Virus record (IMG/VR): IMGVR_UViG_3300044274_000314
Span: 1-52,166 of that record
Source of the DNA: a virus
Taxonomy: Duplodnaviria; Caudoviricetes
Direction: 5' to 3' (one strand)
DNA: 52,166 bases
In this document: positions 13,061 to 41,911 of the stretch, in pieces
Layout: each line of letters begins with the position of its first letter
Numbering within the stretch: position 1 is the first letter of the stretch
The notes under the pieces: generated by a model
Databases searched by the model: none
Seen by the model: the letters and a program-made list of their open reading frames with translations, nothing else
Told to the model about the DNA's origin: nothing
Made by a program: the position numbers and the translations under genes

Positions 13061-13303
13061 TTAGATCTTGACGTCCGGGAGGTTCATCTTCCGGATCATG
13101 TCCTTGGCGTCCTCATACTCCTCCATGCTCATTGGCTCCGCGGACGGTGGCCTCATGAGACGGGCGTGCTCGGCGATCATGCCTTGCCACTGCCAGAGGG
13201 TGAGGTCGTCGATTTCTTTGGGCGAGATGCCTTTTTCGAGGCCGACCCCGTAGCAGGCGGCGAGGTTGAAGAACTGCTCTCCCCCGCCGCCGCTGTCTTT
13301 TTT
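13061..13303 (-). CDS. -1 frameshift extension of the tail assembly chaperone (gpGT-like C-terminal part)
   Basis: A AAA AAG at 13303-13297; the -1 frame reads ...FFNLAACYGVGLEKGISPKEIDDLTLWQWQGMIAEH...PDVKI* up to 13061. Confidence 0.8.
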   Translation of the reverse strand, partial: KKDSGGGGEQFFNLAACYGVGLEKGISPKEIDDLTLWQWQGMIAEHARLMRPPSAEPMSMEEYEDAKDMIRKMNLPDVKI

Positions 13304-13650
13304 CCGCCATCGTCCCCAGCACCCGGATCATCGTAACCCTCGACGCATGCGCCAAGGATCGCGACCGCGTGCCCATGCCAGACCGCGAGCGGCCACTCAT
13401 CACAGTAGCGATCGATCAGCTTGCGTGCTTCCTGGGGATCCACGCCGCCACCGATCAGGCCGAGCCGGACCGTTTCAGTCAGGTCCTGAGCCTTATAGTC
13501 TGCCGTCAGACAGACCCGCTTCCAGATGGTGCCGATCGGGGCGCTGCACTTGTCTTCCAGCTCCGCGATCCGTTTGAGCGGGAGCCGGAAGACGTAGTCT
13601 GCGTCAGCGAAGGTCAACTCCACCTGACAGGAACGATAGCGCTGGGACAT
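13177..13650 (-). CDS. Tail assembly chaperone (GTA gp10-like, gpG equivalent)
   Basis: FADADY.FRL....IAELE.KC...ETVRLGLIGGG; lies between tail tube and tape measure genes. Confidence 0.88.
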   Translation of the reverse strand: MSQRYRSCQVELTFADADYVFRLPLKRIAELEDKCSAPIGTIWKRVCLTADYKAQDLTETVRLGLIGGGVDPQEARKLIDRYCDEWPLAVWHGHAVAILGACVEGYDDPGAGDDGGKKTAAAGESSSSTSPPATGSASKKASRPKKSTTSPSGSGKA

Positions 13651-14102
13651 TAGGAAGCCGCTGTGAAGACCGGCTTGCCGTTGAGGGCGAGGCCGACGCT
13701 GTTCTGCCAGCGCTGTCCGCGCGAGCCGGACTCCTCATACGAGGTGATCACCGCCGGGGCCTGGAAGTAGCCACCGCCCTCACCGGCCGTCAGGTCACGG
13801 AACCAGCGGACGTTCTTCTCAGCAGCACCATCGGTGAACCACCATGCCTGCCACGTTTGCATCGCATCGGAGTCGAGGACCCCGGAGCCCTGCAGAGTCA
13901 TCTGCTGGGACACGATATCGGTCGCGAGCCATGCGGCGAGGTCCGGATCATCACAATCCGGGATGTTCACCGTGTTGCTCTCGATGTTGATGGTCATGGT
14001 CAGCTCGGAGAAGCCACACGGGGCAGTGAACGCTTCCGAGGAGGCGCCGTCGCCGAGCATGATCATGCACTTGCCGAACTTAATCGTCTTTGCCTGTGCC
14101 AT
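13650..14102 (-). CDS. Major tail tube protein
   Basis: LGDGASSEAFTAPCG...IPDCDDPD...GSGVL, typical of alphaproteobacterial siphophage and GTA tubes. Confidence 0.9.
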   Translation of the reverse strand: MAQAKTIKFGKCMIMLGDGASSEAFTAPCGFSELTMTINIESNTVNIPDCDDPDLAAWLATDIVSQQMTLQGSGVLDSDAMQTWQAWWFTDGAAEKNVRWFRDLTAGEGGGYFQAPAVITSYEESGSRGQRWQNSVGLALNGKPVFTAAS

Positions 14103-14207: not shown

Positions 14208-14627
14208 TCACTCGGCTGTGGTCACAACCGAGAATTCGATGATTGCGTGAAAGTCGGTGCCGGCATCGCCGTCCGGGATGGTCTGGGTTCCCTCCCAGTC
14301 GAGCGAGACCAGGCCGAGACCGTCAGCCAGTGGAAGTGTGTCAGACGAGAGCGCCTCGACCACCGCAGCAGCTAGATTGGCGCACGCGGCCTCGTCCGGG
14401 CCTCTTGCGTGCGCATGGACGGTGATGCGTGCGTCGGTGCCACCCCACTCACTGGCTTCGAAGGGGCGAATGTCCGGAACCCCGTAGCGGACGAAGTCCC
14501 ACTCCGTCTTGTCCGGAACCCGGATTCCGTAGACCCGGTCGCTGACTTTGTCGGTCACGCCCGTGCTGGCGAGGAGGTGGCTGATCACCGCCTTCCGGAT
14601 GGCCAGAGAGTGATCAACCGGCAGCAT
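14208..14627 (-). CDS. Tail terminator / tail completion protein (DUF3168-like)
   Basis: 139 aa; RVY...P....W.FVRYG pattern; immediately before the tube gene. Confidence 0.85.
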   Translation of the reverse strand: MLPVDHSLAIRKAVISHLLASTGVTDKVSDRVYGIRVPDKTEWDFVRYGVPDIRPFEASEWGGTDARITVHAHARGPDEAACANLAAAVVEALSSDTLPLADGLGLVSLDWEGTQTIPDGDAGTDFHAIIEFSVVTTAE

Positions 14628-14853: not shown

Positions 14854-15261
14854 TCATCCTTTCCTGTTAATTCGGGAAACCGCGCGCGCGACGTTGACCT
14901 GATAGTCCTTGCGGACCGTCTTCGCGGCCGGTCGCATGTACGGGCGCTCCGCCATCTTTGATGTGCCGTATTCAAGGTGCGCTGCGTATGGCGCAGCACT
15001 TTCGGCCACCGCCTTCAGAGATCCGGTGAGCCGCGCCGTGATGCCCGCCGAGAGGACCCCGGTGTCGAGATTGGGAGGCTCGCCGGGCTTCGAAGGCTGG
15101 TGACCTTTGCCCTGAATGGAGCCTTTGGCGATCAGGAACTGAGCCTCGCCCCGCACGCGGTCTGCAGCGATGTAGACCTGCTTGCTGAGCTCAAGGACCA
15201 GCTCCCGACCGCGCATGCGGCTCAGGCGCCGGCGATGTTTACCCGCGCCTGTGATCTTCAT
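14854..15261 (-). CDS. HK97 gp10-like neck / tail-completion protein
   Basis: PSKPGEPPNLDTG.L, APYAAHLEYGTSKMAERPYMRPA. Confidence 0.92.
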   Translation of the reverse strand: MKITGAGKHRRRLSRMRGRELVLELSKQVYIAADRVRGEAQFLIAKGSIQGKGHQPSKPGEPPNLDTGVLSAGITARLTGSLKAVAESAAPYAAHLEYGTSKMAERPYMRPAAKTVRKDYQVNVARAVSRINRKG

Positions 15262-15635
15262 TAGGCCGGGTCGCTGACCGAGAAGACGTTTGAAGCATCC
15301 GGGATGGACACCACGTCGCCGCTGACAAGGGTGCGGGAGTACGCCGCGTAGCCGAGCAGATTGCCCGCGGTGGCGGCGTCATAATAGGCGACAGAAGTCA
15401 CAGCCTGGGAGGCAACAGCGACGGTGCCGAGCGCGGCATCGCCGTCCGGCGTGCGAGCGCCGGCAGCAGCAGCCCCAAGTGCGACGGCTGGGCGGTTACC
15501 AGATCCCCAGAGGGTGGCCGGCACGACTTCGGAGGCGCCGGAGTCACCCGGGTTACCCCCAGTGAAGAATGCGGCGTATACGGTGTTCGGCAATGCATCG
15601 AGCATCGTATGCTTAGCCGCTGTGGTAAGTGGCAT
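15261..15635 (-). CDS. Small virion structural protein of the type usually paired with fibre/repeat genes
   Basis: YAAFFTGGNPGDSGASEV...YDAATAGNLL...RTLVSGDVVSI pattern; AAAGGAAAG RBS. Confidence 0.7.
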   Translation of the reverse strand: MPLTTAAKHTMLDALPNTVYAAFFTGGNPGDSGASEVVPATLWGSGNRPAVALGAAAAGARTPDGDAALGTVAVASQAVTSVAYYDAATAGNLLGYAAYSRTLVSGDVVSIPDASNVFSVSDPA

Positions 15636-15701
15636 GGGTCTTTCCTTTCAGTGGTGTGGTCAGGAGGCACCCGCCTCCCTTTGATTGATGGGCTGTCGGC
15701 G

Positions 15702-18218
15702 CTATGGCGCGCCGTTGATGGCCACCATGATCGCCACGCCGGTGTTGTCGGCGGCAGGAAGCGTGCGCGTTCCTGTGGCGCCGGCAGAGGCGATCTCTTC
15801 GTCGTATGCGCCGTGCATGAGGCCGCCGAAGTTCAGCCAGCTTGCCCGCTGGGTCATGCCGCTCGGGGCACCGGTCGGGTAGCAGCTGGCCGCAAAGGCG
15901 ATGATCCGGCTGTTGTCGTTTGCGGTGGTGACGCCCGGGATCGTCTTGGACGTCCCGGAAGCAGCAGCACCAGCAATCGCCGCGGTCGGTGTGGATGTGT
16001 CCACGCTGTCGTATCGAAGCATGGCCGCAAACGGATAGTCCGCACCCGGAATCGTCCAGGTGTAGCTCGAGGGCTCGCTGGCGCCGGCGATCTTGTAGAA
16101 CACCTGCGCGTTGGTGCCGCCGGCAGAGTAGACCGACCCAAGCGCCGTCCATCCAGCAGGCGGCGTGAATGTGGACGACGCAAAGTCGCCAAACATAGCG
16201 ATCAGCAGGTCTCCTTCGACCGTGCCCGCGGGCTTGTTGATGCTCGTGGTGCCTTCCATCGTGGTGACGGACTGGAATACCGGCGTCGTTCTGCCGGCAG
16301 CGCCCGCTTCGACGTTGACGCCATTGCCCGCGTCCGCCACGCCGACCGCATCTGCTTCGACGTTGGCCGTCCGTGTCACCGTGCCGGCATCTACCACACT
16401 GTCCCCAGCCGCATTGACCGAGACGCCCCGCTTAACTGCTGCCCCGGCATCCGCAATCGTTGCGGCCAGCGCATCGACGCTCACGCCGCGAGAGACGCTG
16501 CCAGCGGTACCGATGCCTGTAGCATTGCCGTCGACCAGCACCGAGATGCTGACCGCGGATACTTCGGCCACGCCGGCTGCATCGGCAGAGACCGAAAGGC
16601 CGCGTTCGACGCCTGCGGATGCGTTAGCCGTCGCGGCTGCATCGGCAGAGATTGCAACTGTACGTTCGAGCGCAGCGGATGCGTCGGCGACCGCGGCAGC
16701 GTTAGCGGCGATATCGACCCCGATCTGAATGCCCGCACCACTATCGGCCGTCGCGGATGCGTAAGCTTCAACACCGACCGTCCTGGCGACTGCGCCAGCG
16801 TCAGCGATCGCGCCGACTTCGGCCTCAATACCGATCGAGCGTGTGACCGCACCAGCATCAGCGACGGCCCCTGCTTCAGCGTTGACGCGTGCCTCGCGCT
16901 GAGGCGCACCCACGGTACCGACGCCGATGACCTCCGCGTTGAACTCGCCTGCGATATCGGGGGTGCCAGCATCGGTGATGCCAGAAGCCGGGCTGTTGAT
17001 TTCGACGGCCACACCGATATCTGCGACCGCATCGCCGATCGATGCCGCCTCCGCGTCCACCGAAAGCGCCCGGGTCGGGGCTCCAGCATCGGCGACAGCA
17101 CCTGCGTCCGCGGTGACCAGAACGCCACCTTCCGGCGCACCAGCGTCTGCGATCGTCTCGACCTCAGCTGCAACGTGGATCTCAACGCGCGGCGAGCCGA
17201 CCTCGGCGACACCAGAGGCTTCTGCCGAGAACTCTCCGGCCACTTCTGGGGTGCCTGCGCTTGCCTCACCCGAGGCGGCTGCAGAAATCGACACAGTGCG
17301 GCGAGGTTCGCCCGTGGTGGCGGTTACAGAAATTTCGCTATCGATGCGCACCTGACGTTGCGGGGCGCCCACGGCTGCGACAGCGCCCGCAGTGTTGTCC
17401 ACCACGAGACGGAGCGTCGGTGCGCCAGCGGCAGCAACTGCGATCGCAGTGGCGGTGACCGGGACCGGACCGGAATTGTCACCGGTCAGGATCGGGCGAC
17501 CCTGGATCGTCCAGGAAGCGCGTGCCGGGTCCTGCCGGATGGCCTGAATGGAGTAGAGCTGCCCCCGGATGGTGATGCGGCTTTCGAGATCCGGAACGAT
17601 GGAGACGTCCTTCTGCAGGACGATGAGCTTCACATCCGTTTCCGGGATGTTGCCGCGCGCACGCTCGCGCGCAGTGTACTGTTCGACCATGCCCTTCGCG
17701 GAACTGGTCGACGTCGACTCCGACATGCCGCCTTCGCCATCCGCGGTCAGCGTGACTGAAGTGATCGTCGCGTCGAGGAGGAGCGGTGAAAAGACAGACC
17801 CGAAGACTTCCTTCAGGTCAGCGCCGAGGAGCCCGTAGAAGGCGATCGCAGTGGCGGTGTTCGGATAGACCGGGCGGCCTTGGATGGTCCACGAGGCCTG
17901 AGCGGGGTCCTGATCGATCGCGGCGACCGAGTAGACCTGCCCCGCGATGGTGATGGTGCTTTCGAGGTCAGGCGTGACGGTCACGCCCTCCTGAAGGATG
18001 ATCAGCTTGACGTCCGTCGCCGGGATGTCGCCATTCGCCTGCTCATAAGCCGAGTAATCCTCGACCATGCCCTTGGCGGCGGAGGTGGCCGGGGTCCCTT
18101 CGGTCCAGCCACCGTCCCCGGTTTTCGTCAGTGTCGGCTTCGAAATCTCAGCATCCAGAAGGAGCGGCGAGAAGACGGCACCGAAGACACCTGCAAGATC
18201 ACCATCCAAGAGCGCCAT
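15702..18218 (-). CDS. Tandem head-closure domains fused to an Ala/Val repeat stalk and a C-terminal beta-rich domain (838 aa)
   Basis: Occupies the head-closure slot after the adaptor; two ~118-aa copies ending DPAxASWTIQGRP, about 20 repeats of 19-20 aa, then a KPAGTVEGDLLIA...TPPAGWT domain. Confidence 0.8.
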   Translation of the reverse strand: MALLDGDLAGVFGAVFSPLLLDAEISKPTLTKTGDGGWTEGTPATSAAKGMVEDYSAYEQANGDIPATDVKLIILQEGVTVTPDLESTITIAGQVYSVAAIDQDPAQASWTIQGRPVYPNTATAIAFYGLLGADLKEVFGSVFSPLLLDATITSVTLTADGEGGMSESTSTSSAKGMVEQYTARERARGNIPETDVKLIVLQKDVSIVPDLESRITIRGQLYSIQAIRQDPARASWTIQGRPILTGDNSGPVPVTATAIAVAAAGAPTLRLVVDNTAGAVAAVGAPQRQVRIDSEISVTATTGEPRRTVSISAAASGEASAGTPEVAGEFSAEASGVAEVGSPRVEIHVAAEVETIADAGAPEGGVLVTADAGAVADAGAPTRALSVDAEAASIGDAVADIGVAVEINSPASGITDAGTPDIAGEFNAEVIGVGTVGAPQREARVNAEAGAVADAGAVTRSIGIEAEVGAIADAGAVARTVGVEAYASATADSGAGIQIGVDIAANAAAVADASAALERTVAISADAAATANASAGVERGLSVSADAAGVAEVSAVSISVLVDGNATGIGTAGSVSRGVSVDALAATIADAGAAVKRGVSVNAAGDSVVDAGTVTRTANVEADAVGVADAGNGVNVEAGAAGRTTPVFQSVTTMEGTTSINKPAGTVEGDLLIAMFGDFASSTFTPPAGWTALGSVYSAGGTNAQVFYKIAGASEPSSYTWTIPGADYPFAAMLRYDSVDTSTPTAAIAGAAASGTSKTIPGVTTANDNSRIIAFAASCYPTGAPSGMTQRASWLNFGGLMHGAYDEEIASAGATGTRTLPAADNTGVAIMVAINGAP
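16300..17450 (-). repeat. About 20 degenerate 19-20-aa coding repeats (consensus roughly A(V/I)ADAGAxxRxxxVxAxAx)
   Basis: Visible in the translation, e.g. AVADAGAPTRALSVDAEAA, AVADAGAVTRSIGIEAEVG, AIADAGAVARTVGVEAYAS; boundaries approximate. Confidence 0.8.
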
Positions 18219-18221
18219 GAA

Positions 18222-18587
18222 TTAACCTCCGATGGCGATGATTCCCGGCTGGGATCGTTTCAGCAGCGCCAGGAAGCGCTGTCCGAATGTGGTCAGAGCG
18301 TAGACGCCGGCCATGTCGACACCGGCTTCCCGTTCCAGTTCGAGGGAACCGAGCTTCAGGCGCCGGAACCCTTGCAGCTGCGCCTCGCGTGTGGCGCCCT
18401 GTCCGTCGAGCGTGAGCTCGTGTGCGGCATGGAGGTTCTCGGCTTCCTGGCGATCGTTCTCCAGCCATGTGGAGTCGACGGTCAGCCGTGCCCGGTCCAG
18501 TGCAGAGGTGATGAGCGCATCATCGACCGCGGCAAAGGCCGGGAAACGTGCTTTGAAACTCGCCGCATCTGCAGCGGTGTAGGCCAT
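18222..18587 (-). CDS. Head-tail adaptor (DUF4054-like)
   Basis: FKARFPAF..V.D...AAH.L...T.FGQRFL.L. Confidence 0.88.
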   Translation of the reverse strand: MAYTAADAASFKARFPAFAAVDDALITSALDRARLTVDSTWLENDRQEAENLHAAHELTLDGQGATREAQLQGFRRLKLGSLELEREAGVDMAGVYALTTFGQRFLALLKRSQPGIIAIGG

Positions 18588-18590
18588 GGC

Positions 18591-19136
18591 TTATTTGGCC
18601 GTGGACGCGTCGGTCTTCGCAGCAGCTTCAGCGTCGGCCTTGGCCTTGGCATCCGCAGCGGCTTTCTCCGCCTCAGCGGCCTTGGCTGCGTCTTCGGCAG
18701 CTTTCGCATCGGCAGCGGCCTTCGCGTCAGCAGCAGCCTTTTCATCTGCGGCCTTCTGAGCGGCGTCGGAAGCAGCGGCCTCCGCCTGACCGATCAGTGT
18801 GGCAACAGCCTCGTCGGTCGCGTTCTCAGGCACGACAATATTCAGCTCGGCCGCCTTGGCGTTCAGGGCCTTGCGCTCGTCGCTGATCTCGACAGTCGTC
18901 GGCGTTGGTGCTGGGGCCGGAGCAGGTTCAGCAGCATGCTCTACCGGGCCAACCTTCGCATCCTTCGGCGCCACGGTGATGATCACACCTGCCTCGAAGT
19001 GCATACCGATCTTCTCGTCCGTCAGGACGCCTTCGACGTCCACGATCTCGGTCTTGCCGCGGCGTACTTCATGGGTGCCGCCAAGGACCTTGAAGGCCTT
19101 TCCGAACGGGGAGTTGTTCTCAATATGGTATTTCAT
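18591..19136 (-). CDS. Capsid-associated hypothetical protein with Ala/Lys low-complexity tail
   Basis: AGGAGG RBS; directly after the major capsid gene; LNAKAAELNI..PENAT helix-extension-helix-like segment. Confidence 0.75.
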   Translation of the reverse strand: MKYHIENNSPFGKAFKVLGGTHEVRRGKTEIVDVEGVLTDEKIGMHFEAGVIITVAPKDAKVGPVEHAAEPAPAPAPTPTTVEISDERKALNAKAAELNIVVPENATDEAVATLIGQAEAAASDAAQKAADEKAAADAKAAADAKAAEDAAKAAEAEKAAADAKAKADAEAAAKTDASTAK

Positions 19137-41570: not shown

Positions 41571-41911
41571 GCGGCTTCGTCATCGACTTTCACGCCGAGC
41601 GCAACGCCCGCATCGAAGAGGCGAACCTCGCCAACGCGCGCCGCCAGCTCGAAGCGGCTGCGGGCATGGCTGTCACCCACCTGATCGCAGGCCTGCCCGG
41701 CGCCGCCGAGGCTCAAGCCATCATGGACAAAGCATTCGCAGAGAGACTGCCGGAGGAGCTGACTGAAGAGTCGATCCTCCGGCAGATGGAGAACAACAAC
41801 GCAGGGACAGCTCACGGAGAGCAGCCGATTCCTAATCGGAAGGCGGGCGATGCATCGTTCGGGTTCGACTCCCCCTCCCTGCTCCAATCACATGAGGAGT
41901 CCGAAGGATGA
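41567..41911 (+). CDS. Hypothetical protein
   Basis: GGAGG RBS, ATGA overlap. Confidence 0.65.
   Translation: MSGFVIDFHAERNARIEEANLANARRQLEAAAGMAVTHLIAGLPGAAEAQAIMDKAFAERLPEELTEESILRQMENNNAGTAHGEQPIPNRKAGDASFGFDSPSLLQSHEESEG

Follow-up and report, generated by a model that had tools for sequence, protein, structure and literature searches.

Between its head-tail adaptor gene and its HK97 gp10-like gene, in the slot that normally holds a head-closure (stopper) gene of about 120 amino acids (aa), the provirus IMGVR_UViG_3300044274_000314 carries an open reading frame (ORF) of 838 aa. What is so long a stopper for? The window analysed here is the whole IMG/VR record, a provirus of 52,166 bases with a CheckV completeness of 100%. 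The product of the long ORF, P0001, joins two predicted stopper domains, about 20 short repeats and a distal domain in one chain, and the next gene encodes a small protein of the Gp80 family, P0002. We propose, with a probability of roughly 60%, that the two genes encode a bead-chain neck whisker, built of a rope and Gp80 dimers and covalently anchored in the stopper ring.

In the proposed structure, the stopper domains would sit in a ring under the dodecameric adaptor, and the chain would leave that ring at the C-terminus of the second domain as a rope, extended and non-globular. At every repeat, 19-20 aa long, a P0002 dimer would dock and clamp the rope by beta-strand augmentation, in the way seen in the solved structures of the Fiber I of phage GP4, the whiskers of Bas63 and Sf14 and the chain-like fibres of A1002. 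Scaled from A1002 (11 dimers per ~300 A), the whisker would carry ~20 dimers and be ~50 nm long. A variable beta-sandwich domain would occupy its far end, replaced in homologues by a concanavalin-A-like lectin domain, and each virion would bear three or six whiskers. The repeats are read as a rope with bead dimers because of the adjoining Gp80-family gene, the strict co-occurrence of that gene with the stopper extension, and the published architecture of ropes with docked dimers.

An earlier note on this DNA, made from its letters, had given its finding the span 15261-18218. The span holds two genes on the - strand (838 aa at 15702-18218; 124 aa at 15261-15635). The idea of an appendage joined covalently to the neck protein agrees with the sequence, in which stopper domains, repeats and tip lie in one 838-aa ORF. 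The features of the locus are listed in the order of transcription, except that the complete ORF precedes its parts.

18222..18587, - strand: DUF4054 head-tail adaptor, ring partner upstream of the stopper (PF13262, E 2.8e-18)
15702-18218, - strand: P0001, the 838-aa ORF (stopper::rope::tip), one open frame
17865..18218, - strand: stopper domain 1, aa 1-118 (one of the two stretches matched by phrog_161 Hc1)
17841..17864, - strand: linker between the stopper domains, aa 119-126 (continuous frame)
17484..17840, - strand: stopper domain 2, aa 127-245 (AlphaFold2 (AF2) model and Foldseek)
16299..17471, - strand: putative rope, ~20 repeats of 19-20 aa, aa 250-640 (period and repeat hidden Markov model (HMM))
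15705..16298, - strand: distal domain, predicted all-beta tip, aa 641-838 (AF2; stop codon at 15702-15704)
15261..15635, - strand: P0002, Gp80-family putative bead protein, 124 aa (PF23140, E 3.3e-11)
14854..15261, - strand: Neck1 / HK97 gp10-like protein (phrog_5, E 5.3e-12)
14208..14627, - strand: tail terminator (PF11367, E 1.4e-18; phrog_176)

The duplicated head-closure domains

The slot is indeed short elsewhere. In 20 related loci (16 IMG/VR viral contigs and four Henriciella genomes), the matching gene ends after ~116-125 aa without exception. A DUF4054 adaptor homologue precedes this short stopper gene in 19 of the 20, and a Neck1 homologue follows it directly in 18.

The N-terminal part of P0001 consists of two homologous domains, as the earlier note had seen. 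Residues 2-117 and 129-243 are identical at 76 of 115 positions, and their local alignment score of 377 lies far above the scores of 200 shuffled controls (29 +/- 5, maximum 49). Because the DNA identity of the two domains is only 236/348 (68%), the duplication is, judged by its sequence, an old one and not an assembly repeat. The junction between the domains is free of stop codons, frameshifts and in-frame ATG, GTG or TTG codons.

Profile and model agree on the fold of these domains, which is that of SPP1 gp16 and lambda gpFII as far as sequence and prediction tell. The Hc1 profile phrog_161 matches P0001 in two stretches (E 2.4e-26). A Pfam search with the whole 838-aa protein gave no match at E<=0.01, and PF05521 appeared only weakly, under the cutoff, in the homologues P0007 (0.029) and P0010 (0.026). 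AF2 was applied to domain 2 only, to which domain 1 is 66% identical. The model has a predicted local distance difference test score (pLDDT) of 84.9, with a helix at residues 6-20 and a hairpin of strands 22-33 and 39-54. Its best Foldseek match is SPP1 gp16 in 7z4w (the gp6/gp15/gp16 complex; E 7.5e-5, template modelling (TM) score 0.55), and every one of the top 14 rows is a neck entry from a phage or a phage-like element. Further rows include phiCD508, the T1 stopper, XM1, Pam3, E217, the Rhodobacter gene transfer agent, PBSX XkdH, lambda (8k37) and R4C. A sequence search of P0001 against the PDB returned only a chance row for GlnK (E 0.45). The two phrog_161 matches and the SPP1 gp16 hit support the head-closure fold that had been assigned from the letters. 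The ORF is the sole stopper gene in the record, and P0001 is the phage's only head-closure protein.

Head-closure rings are hexameric, as the earlier note stated, in lambda and in Bas63 (PMC10721106, PMC12609058). In the lambda gpFII hexamer, the N-terminal helices cradle the adaptor barrel, and the hairpin and C-terminal loop engage the terminator (PMC10721106). The stoppers SPP1 gp16, lambda gpFII, T1 and R4C resemble the domains of P0001 in fold and gene position, and their role in the ring is presumably alike. Unlike P0001, they are single-domain proteins of ~110-125 aa.

Putative rope, bead protein and tip

Beyond the stopper domains, P0001 is repetitive. Lag autocorrelation of the repeats peaks at 19 aa, and from aa 260 to 638 a repeat HMM counts 20 units, each 19-20 aa long (along with two spurious matches in the tip), so that the ~20 Ala/Val repeats counted in the earlier note hold up. 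The region is 27% Ala, 15% Val, 12% Gly, 2% Leu and 1% Phe, and Trp, Tyr and Met are absent; with so few large hydrophobic residues, it would have no self-folding core. Composition and period fit an extended, non-globular rope, for which a spacing of ~20 aa per dimer is inferred from GP4 gp79 and other Gp80 loci. Within the rope, two stretches of ~30 aa (aa 322-351 and 419-448), lying ~97 aa apart, are more alike than ordinary units, and this suggests a super-repeat of five units. The irregular repeat units of P0001 are kept at the same positions in the homologues P0005 and P0006.

The small fibre-associated structural gene that the earlier note had placed after the long ORF encodes a member of the Gp80 family. 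P0002 matches PF23140 with 44 bits against a cutoff of 27, and all 34 of its homologues carry the same family. A profile built from these 34 homologues finds GP4 gp80 in the PDB (8jou_a, 10 chains; E 1.3e-10). A tblastn search of 50,697 phage records with P0002 found nothing at E<=0.1.

The structural role of such proteins is described for several phages. In A1002, GP4 and VP1, dimers of small proteins dock serially on an extended rope via augmented beta-sheets, with 11 dimers on ~300 A of the nozzle-rope protein of A1002 and five on the separately encoded rope of GP4 (PMC13730344). The neck whiskers of Bas63 consist of dimers resembling GP4 Fiber 1, arranged as 'beads on a string', where the string is the rope domain of a collar protein (PMC12609058). 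Sf14 also has neck whiskers (PMC11821841).

Docking was also addressed by structure prediction. A complex of rope aa 449-526 with four copies of P0002 was predicted and the rope was scored; the score of 0.51 is graded as weak support, the best of three controls reached 0.01, and at least 46% of contacts are common to the runs. The mark for this score is reached by 58 of 80 solved complexes and by 2 of 110 mismatched pairs, and only 7 of the 80 but both mismatches reach it at <=0.60; the present prediction differs from that calibration in using its own alignments and a multi-copy set-up. The pass may reflect only a likeness to already solved complexes.

The Gp80 gene accompanies the stopper extension. 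Where the stopper is short, in all 20 loci, the + strand ORFs within 6 kb include no Gp80 homologue. Long homologues of P0001 are rare, with seven among 5.8 billion clustered proteins. Six of them have one stopper domain, repeats of period 19 or 20 and differing C-terminal domains, and P0007 (797 aa, 44% identity) is a second two-domain stopper protein. The lag peak falls at 19 or 20 in all eight fusion proteins. For four of the seven long homologues, the longest contig is of the same size as that of a close Gp80 homologue (54327, 34952, 54894 and 24503).

The same arrangement recurs on another stopper. In the loci L022, L023 and L046, a Gp80 gene (64-65% identical) follows the gene for a 383-416 aa protein (L023 5650-6900, +), which lies between an Ad1 adaptor and the terminator. 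This protein fuses a stopper domain of PF05521 (E 1.1e-9; phrog_25) to ~2.5 repeats and to a tip related to the tips of P0010 and P0006. Stopper::rope::tip with a Gp80 gene is, on the evidence of these profiles, found on two stopper families that have no detectable mutual sequence similarity. In the metagenome contig L045, a Gp80 gene (80% identical) comes directly after an ORF that is cut by the contig end and has Ala/Val repeats and a P0001-like tip. In this contig (1268-2323, +), a head-morphogenesis (SPP1 gp7-like) gene takes the place of Neck1 after the rope-tip and Gp80 genes, so that the genomic surroundings of the module can vary.

Repeats of the same period also lie beside more distant Gp80 genes. 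The GP4 protein gp79 (L054 10048-11025, -), encoded beside gp80, has ~8-9 repeats with a 20-aa period at aa ~41-220; gp81 and gp82 are 12-copy chains of 8jov. Each of five further Gp80 genes (PF23140, E 1e-33 to 1e-40) is followed by a gene that lacks a Pfam family and has a lag-20 score of 1.2-2.55, where the 99th percentile among 276 distant ORFs is 1.4. In four of these loci (L029, L030, L033 and L043; the fifth is L036) repeats of 20 aa with abundant Ala, Ser, Gly and Val are also plain to the eye. The windowed periodicity score can be misled by low complexity (a 181-aa Ala/Lys-rich ORF scores 1.85), and for this reason we rely on loci where repeats were also read by eye. The 31 Gp80 loci were sorted by eye, from identical coordinates and scores, into 17 sequence-distinct groups, four of which score above the 99th percentile and four more above the 95th.

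At the far end of the chain, the ~190-aa beta-rich tip expected from the letters is matched by a confident all-beta AF2 model of aa 640-838 (199 aa; pLDDT 92.4, predicted TM score 0.90), with 14 strands and no helix. The PHROG match of the tip is phrog_3319-type, phrog_3329 (unknown function; E 2e-7). No Pfam family was found for it, the sole row being PKD_6 at 0.038, under the cutoff, and its nearest Atlas clusters are unnamed and mostly viral. A Foldseek search of the tip against the PDB gave no row at E<=0.001. The best Z in a wide VIA-align search was 6.8, which lies within the stated background and excludes no family; the second half of the tip reaches this value with the receptor-binding protein head of Tuc2009 (root-mean-square deviation (rmsd) 3.5 A, 82 residues aligned) and with the C-terminal domain of PGP3 (rmsd 2.9 A, 90 aligned). 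When the 50,697 phage records were searched with P0001 by tblastn, only the tip (aa 645-725) was matched, in the Rhodococcus phages REQ1 and Shagrat (a hypothetical protein and a 'minor tail protein'). The tip family has 6163 cluster representatives at E<=1e-3, often with two to seven copies in proteins of 1000-3000 aa, and no Pfam model.

The distal domains are swapped among the long homologues, with one module common to P0009 and P0011 and another to P0006 and P0010. That of P0008 matches PF13385, Laminin_G_3, a concanavalin-A-like lectin family (E 2.4e-6, 28.2 bits against a cutoff of 27.6); this profile match was not found in the P0001 tip. GP4 Fiber I may contact lipopolysaccharide, according to a suggestion cited in PMC12609058. 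An adhesive role, probably a reversible contact with host-surface glycans, is suggested by the place of the tip at the far end, by the lectin-like domains found instead of it in homologues and by what has been proposed for GP4 Fiber I.

Chains in the ring and the fold of the repeats

How many copies of P0001 would make up one ring? Compared with 12 free-standing stoppers, domains 1 and 2 reach 70/69% in the N-terminal helix, 48/50% in the hairpin, 52/52% in the middle and 62/63% in the C-terminal sheet, and in all four regions this is the level of similarity among those stoppers themselves. With no region in which either domain is less conserved than the free-standing stoppers, both would make ordinary ring contacts. 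Three two-domain chains probably close one pseudo-hexameric ring with three whiskers, and we prefer this arrangement to one with stacked rings or with a decorative domain. For the single-domain relatives, six whiskers would be expected. The pseudo-hexamer put forward in the earlier note thus keeps our preference through the equal conservation of its two domains, as a proposal. The pseudo-hexamer of the T5 tail tube protein pb6 is a parallel to the tandem stopper domain.

It is quite possible, though in our judgement short of an even bet, that each virion has six chains and six whiskers, with only domain 2 in the stopper ring and domain 1 forming a second, stacked ring or an outer collar. The domain tree is consistent with domain 1 as an added N-terminal module. 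Domain 2 groups with the single-domain fusions (support 87/87), which makes it, by sequence, the orthologue of their one stopper domain; domain 1 lies outside that clade and is nearest to the free-standing short stopper P0014 (71% identical). Whether domain 1 came from duplication in place or from capture of a P0014-like stopper is a choice in which the tree supports neither over the other. The N-terminal helix of gpFII points towards the adaptor and its C-terminal loop towards the terminator (PMC10721106), and a short linker would suit stacking. However, a stacked or decorative domain should show a changed constraint in the adaptor-facing helix and hairpin, and neither domain does. The linker, which counts ~14 residues from the end of domain 1's final strand to the opening helix of domain 2 (with limits taken from the AF2 model of domain 2), could by an estimate made without coordinates also span neighbouring positions of one ring.

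The repeats themselves allow other folds. The repeats of three chains might form one or more trimeric beta shafts, like those of adenovirus or reovirus, with P0002 only an accessory or assembly factor. This would suit the regular 19-20 aa repeats, in which small hydrophobic residues alternate and a Gly/Pro turn occurs, the weak likeness to trimeric heads in the second half of the tip, and a ring of three chains, which would match a trimer. Nevertheless the self-assembling trimeric fibre of the earlier note is unlikely, because a Gp80 gene adjoins, because this gene and the extension strictly go together, and because the published architecture is one of rope and dimers. Structures define the Gp80 family as a bead that binds a rope, the single-domain relatives would supply six chains, and the rope has no large core residues. 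Fusions of the L023 type have only ~2.5 repeats, too few for a shaft, and resemble the two dimers per rope of Bas63; the Z values of the tip do not rise above the common background stated for VIA-align. An improbable alternative, too, is a monomeric two-sheet beta-solenoid, into which the repeats would fold alone with ~19 residues per coil over ~10 nm, while P0002 binds a part of it or caps it. Coils of 19 residues occur in some ice-binding adhesins, and the period and the strand-turn-strand pattern of the repeats fit such coils. The co-occurrence of Gp80 and the nature of its family tell against the solenoid as well, as do the Ala-dominated composition (2% Leu, 1% Phe), which has no Asn/Gly ladder typical of solenoids, and a rope pLDDT of just 46-51 even in the complex prediction. 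We find it hardly credible that the 838-aa ORF is a fusion without function or arose as an artefact of assembly. It has no close relative in the phage collection, but seven independent long homologues share its architecture, including a two-domain form at 44% identity, its domains are just 68% identical in DNA, all 838 codons are open, and it is the sole stopper in a 100%-complete record.

Several observations count against the bead-chain whisker anchored in the stopper ring. The complex prediction is just weak, with that same low pLDDT of the rope, and a period of 19-20 aa is also used by some beta-solenoids. The argument for linkage from contig sizes is indirect, and three of the seven fusions have no contig of matching size. 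Eight of the 17 Gp80 groups have no neighbour within 1.5 kb that scores above the 95th percentile (some of the contigs end there), and the short rope of L022, L023 and L046 scores low by the periodicity measure. As the rope of GP4, gp79 is an unconfirmed candidate with no PDB sequence match. A search of the P0001 rope against PDB sequences gave no match at E<=10, and the repeat HMM of P0001 gave no signal with GP4 gp77-gp83 or with 20 shuffles of gp79. The domain tree, in which 10 of 19 inner branches are open, favours neither a single nor a multiple origin of the two-domain state. Finally, the weak matches of the tip to TNF-like or receptor-binding heads would, if real, hint at trimerised distal ends. 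Because the papers cited here do not define a rope by its sequence, the unlikeness of this rope to known ones is weak evidence against common descent; it has no bearing on whether they work alike.

The covalently anchored whisker can be stated in a fuller form, which as a whole we consider doubtful: a three-chain pseudo-hexamer (a reduction of symmetry from six to three) would carry whiskers of ~50 nm with ~20 Gp80 dimers each, one per 20-aa repeat, for ~120 bead subunits per virion, and with an exchangeable glycan-binding tip it would be a recurrent, hitherto unrecognised siphophage adhesion module that arose on at least two unrelated stopper families. If there is one 20-aa repeat per bead dimer, the length of a whisker could be read from its sequence.

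Genomic setting and comparison with known systems

Pfam and PHROG profile searches of the window proteins place the two genes in a siphophage morphogenesis module on the - strand. The module begins with terminase, portal, head-morphogenesis protein, DUF2213 protease, lambda-D-like decoration protein and lambda-E-like capsid protein. It continues with a 181-aa protein, the DUF4054 adaptor, the 838-aa ORF, the 124-aa ORF and the Neck1 / HK97 gp10-like protein, and ends with tail terminator, tube, tape measure, distal tail protein and a J-like central fibre. A hairpin sought between the 838-aa and 124-aa genes was no better than in shuffles (z -0.45). No Pfam or PHROG match was found for the 181-aa ORF (18591-19136, -) that separates the capsid gene from the adaptor gene; it has a Pro/Ala linker and a low-complexity C-terminal tail rich in Ala, Lys and Asp. 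A second tube-like protein (13177-13650, -; phrog_8985 'tail tube protein', E 2.3e-29) is encoded directly after the major tail protein gene (13650-14102), in the usual place of the tape-measure chaperone. One tRNA-Arg (anticodon CCT) lies at 41801-41886 (+), in the non-structural part of the provirus.

Rope-and-bead fibres have been recognised only recently, by cryo-electron microscopy of a few podophages and Felix-O1-like myophages. If our proposal is true, this construction extends to siphophages, the rope being joined straight to the essential stopper, some four times longer than in GP4 and fitted with swappable lectin-like tips. A PF23140 gene beside 19-20 aa repeats rich in Ala, Val, Ser and Gly would be a genomic signature for whiskers in unannotated phages. 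The tandem stopper would be a rare natural test of how a hexameric neck ring tolerates covalent pairing of its subunits. The analysis also provides annotations for an 838-aa 'hypothetical protein' and for the gene beside it.

The earlier note knew of no described example of such an appendage. This holds only in part: whiskers or fibres of a rope with Gp80-like beads are known in Bas63, Sf14, GP4, VP1 and A1002, but in none of these is the rope on the stopper, being carried instead by a collar, a nozzle or a separate protein. In the open-access literature we found no description of a stopper with a fused fibre, a rope or a tandem domain.

Other neck appendages are built differently. The whiskers of T4 (fibritin, wac) are also at the neck, but they are trimeric coiled coils and not a rope with dimers (PMC12609058). 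The cyanomyophage A-1(L) has neck appendages with a distal carbohydrate-binding module, but there each fibre strings trimeric beads into a chain that sits on a pentadecameric adaptor (PMC10966104).

The closest likenesses are found among the rope-and-bead systems. The Felixounavirus myophages Bas63 and Sf14 have, like our model of P0001, neck whiskers of dimers on an extended rope. In Bas63 this rope is an N-terminal extension of a separate Ig-like (immunoglobulin-like) collar protein, present in 12 copies, and it holds two dimers (PMC12609058). The putative rope of P0001, in a siphophage, is C-terminal to a duplicated stopper, has ~20 repeats and ends in a globular tip. Fiber I of GP4 (8JOU) shares with this locus a bead protein homologous to P0002 and a bead gene beside a gene of 20-aa period (gp79). 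Its rope is separate and interlocked with the collar and holds five dimers, and the five fibres dock on the capsid (PMC13730344, PMC12609058); gp79, its candidate rope, has no detectable sequence similarity to the rope of P0001. A1002 gp39 places the rope within a ring-forming hexameric protein, with 11 beta-augmented dimers and a small beta domain at the end, much as the model of P0001 would have it (PMC13730344). In A1002 the anchor is a nozzle at the tail and there are two bead proteins (gp40 and gp41), whereas the P0001 locus has a stopper at the neck and one bead gene. As far as its genes tell, P0001 would be the first siphophage case found, and it would differ from all of these in a rope fused to the stopper itself, a tandem stopper, an exchangeable tip and the longest rope among them, with ~20 sites.

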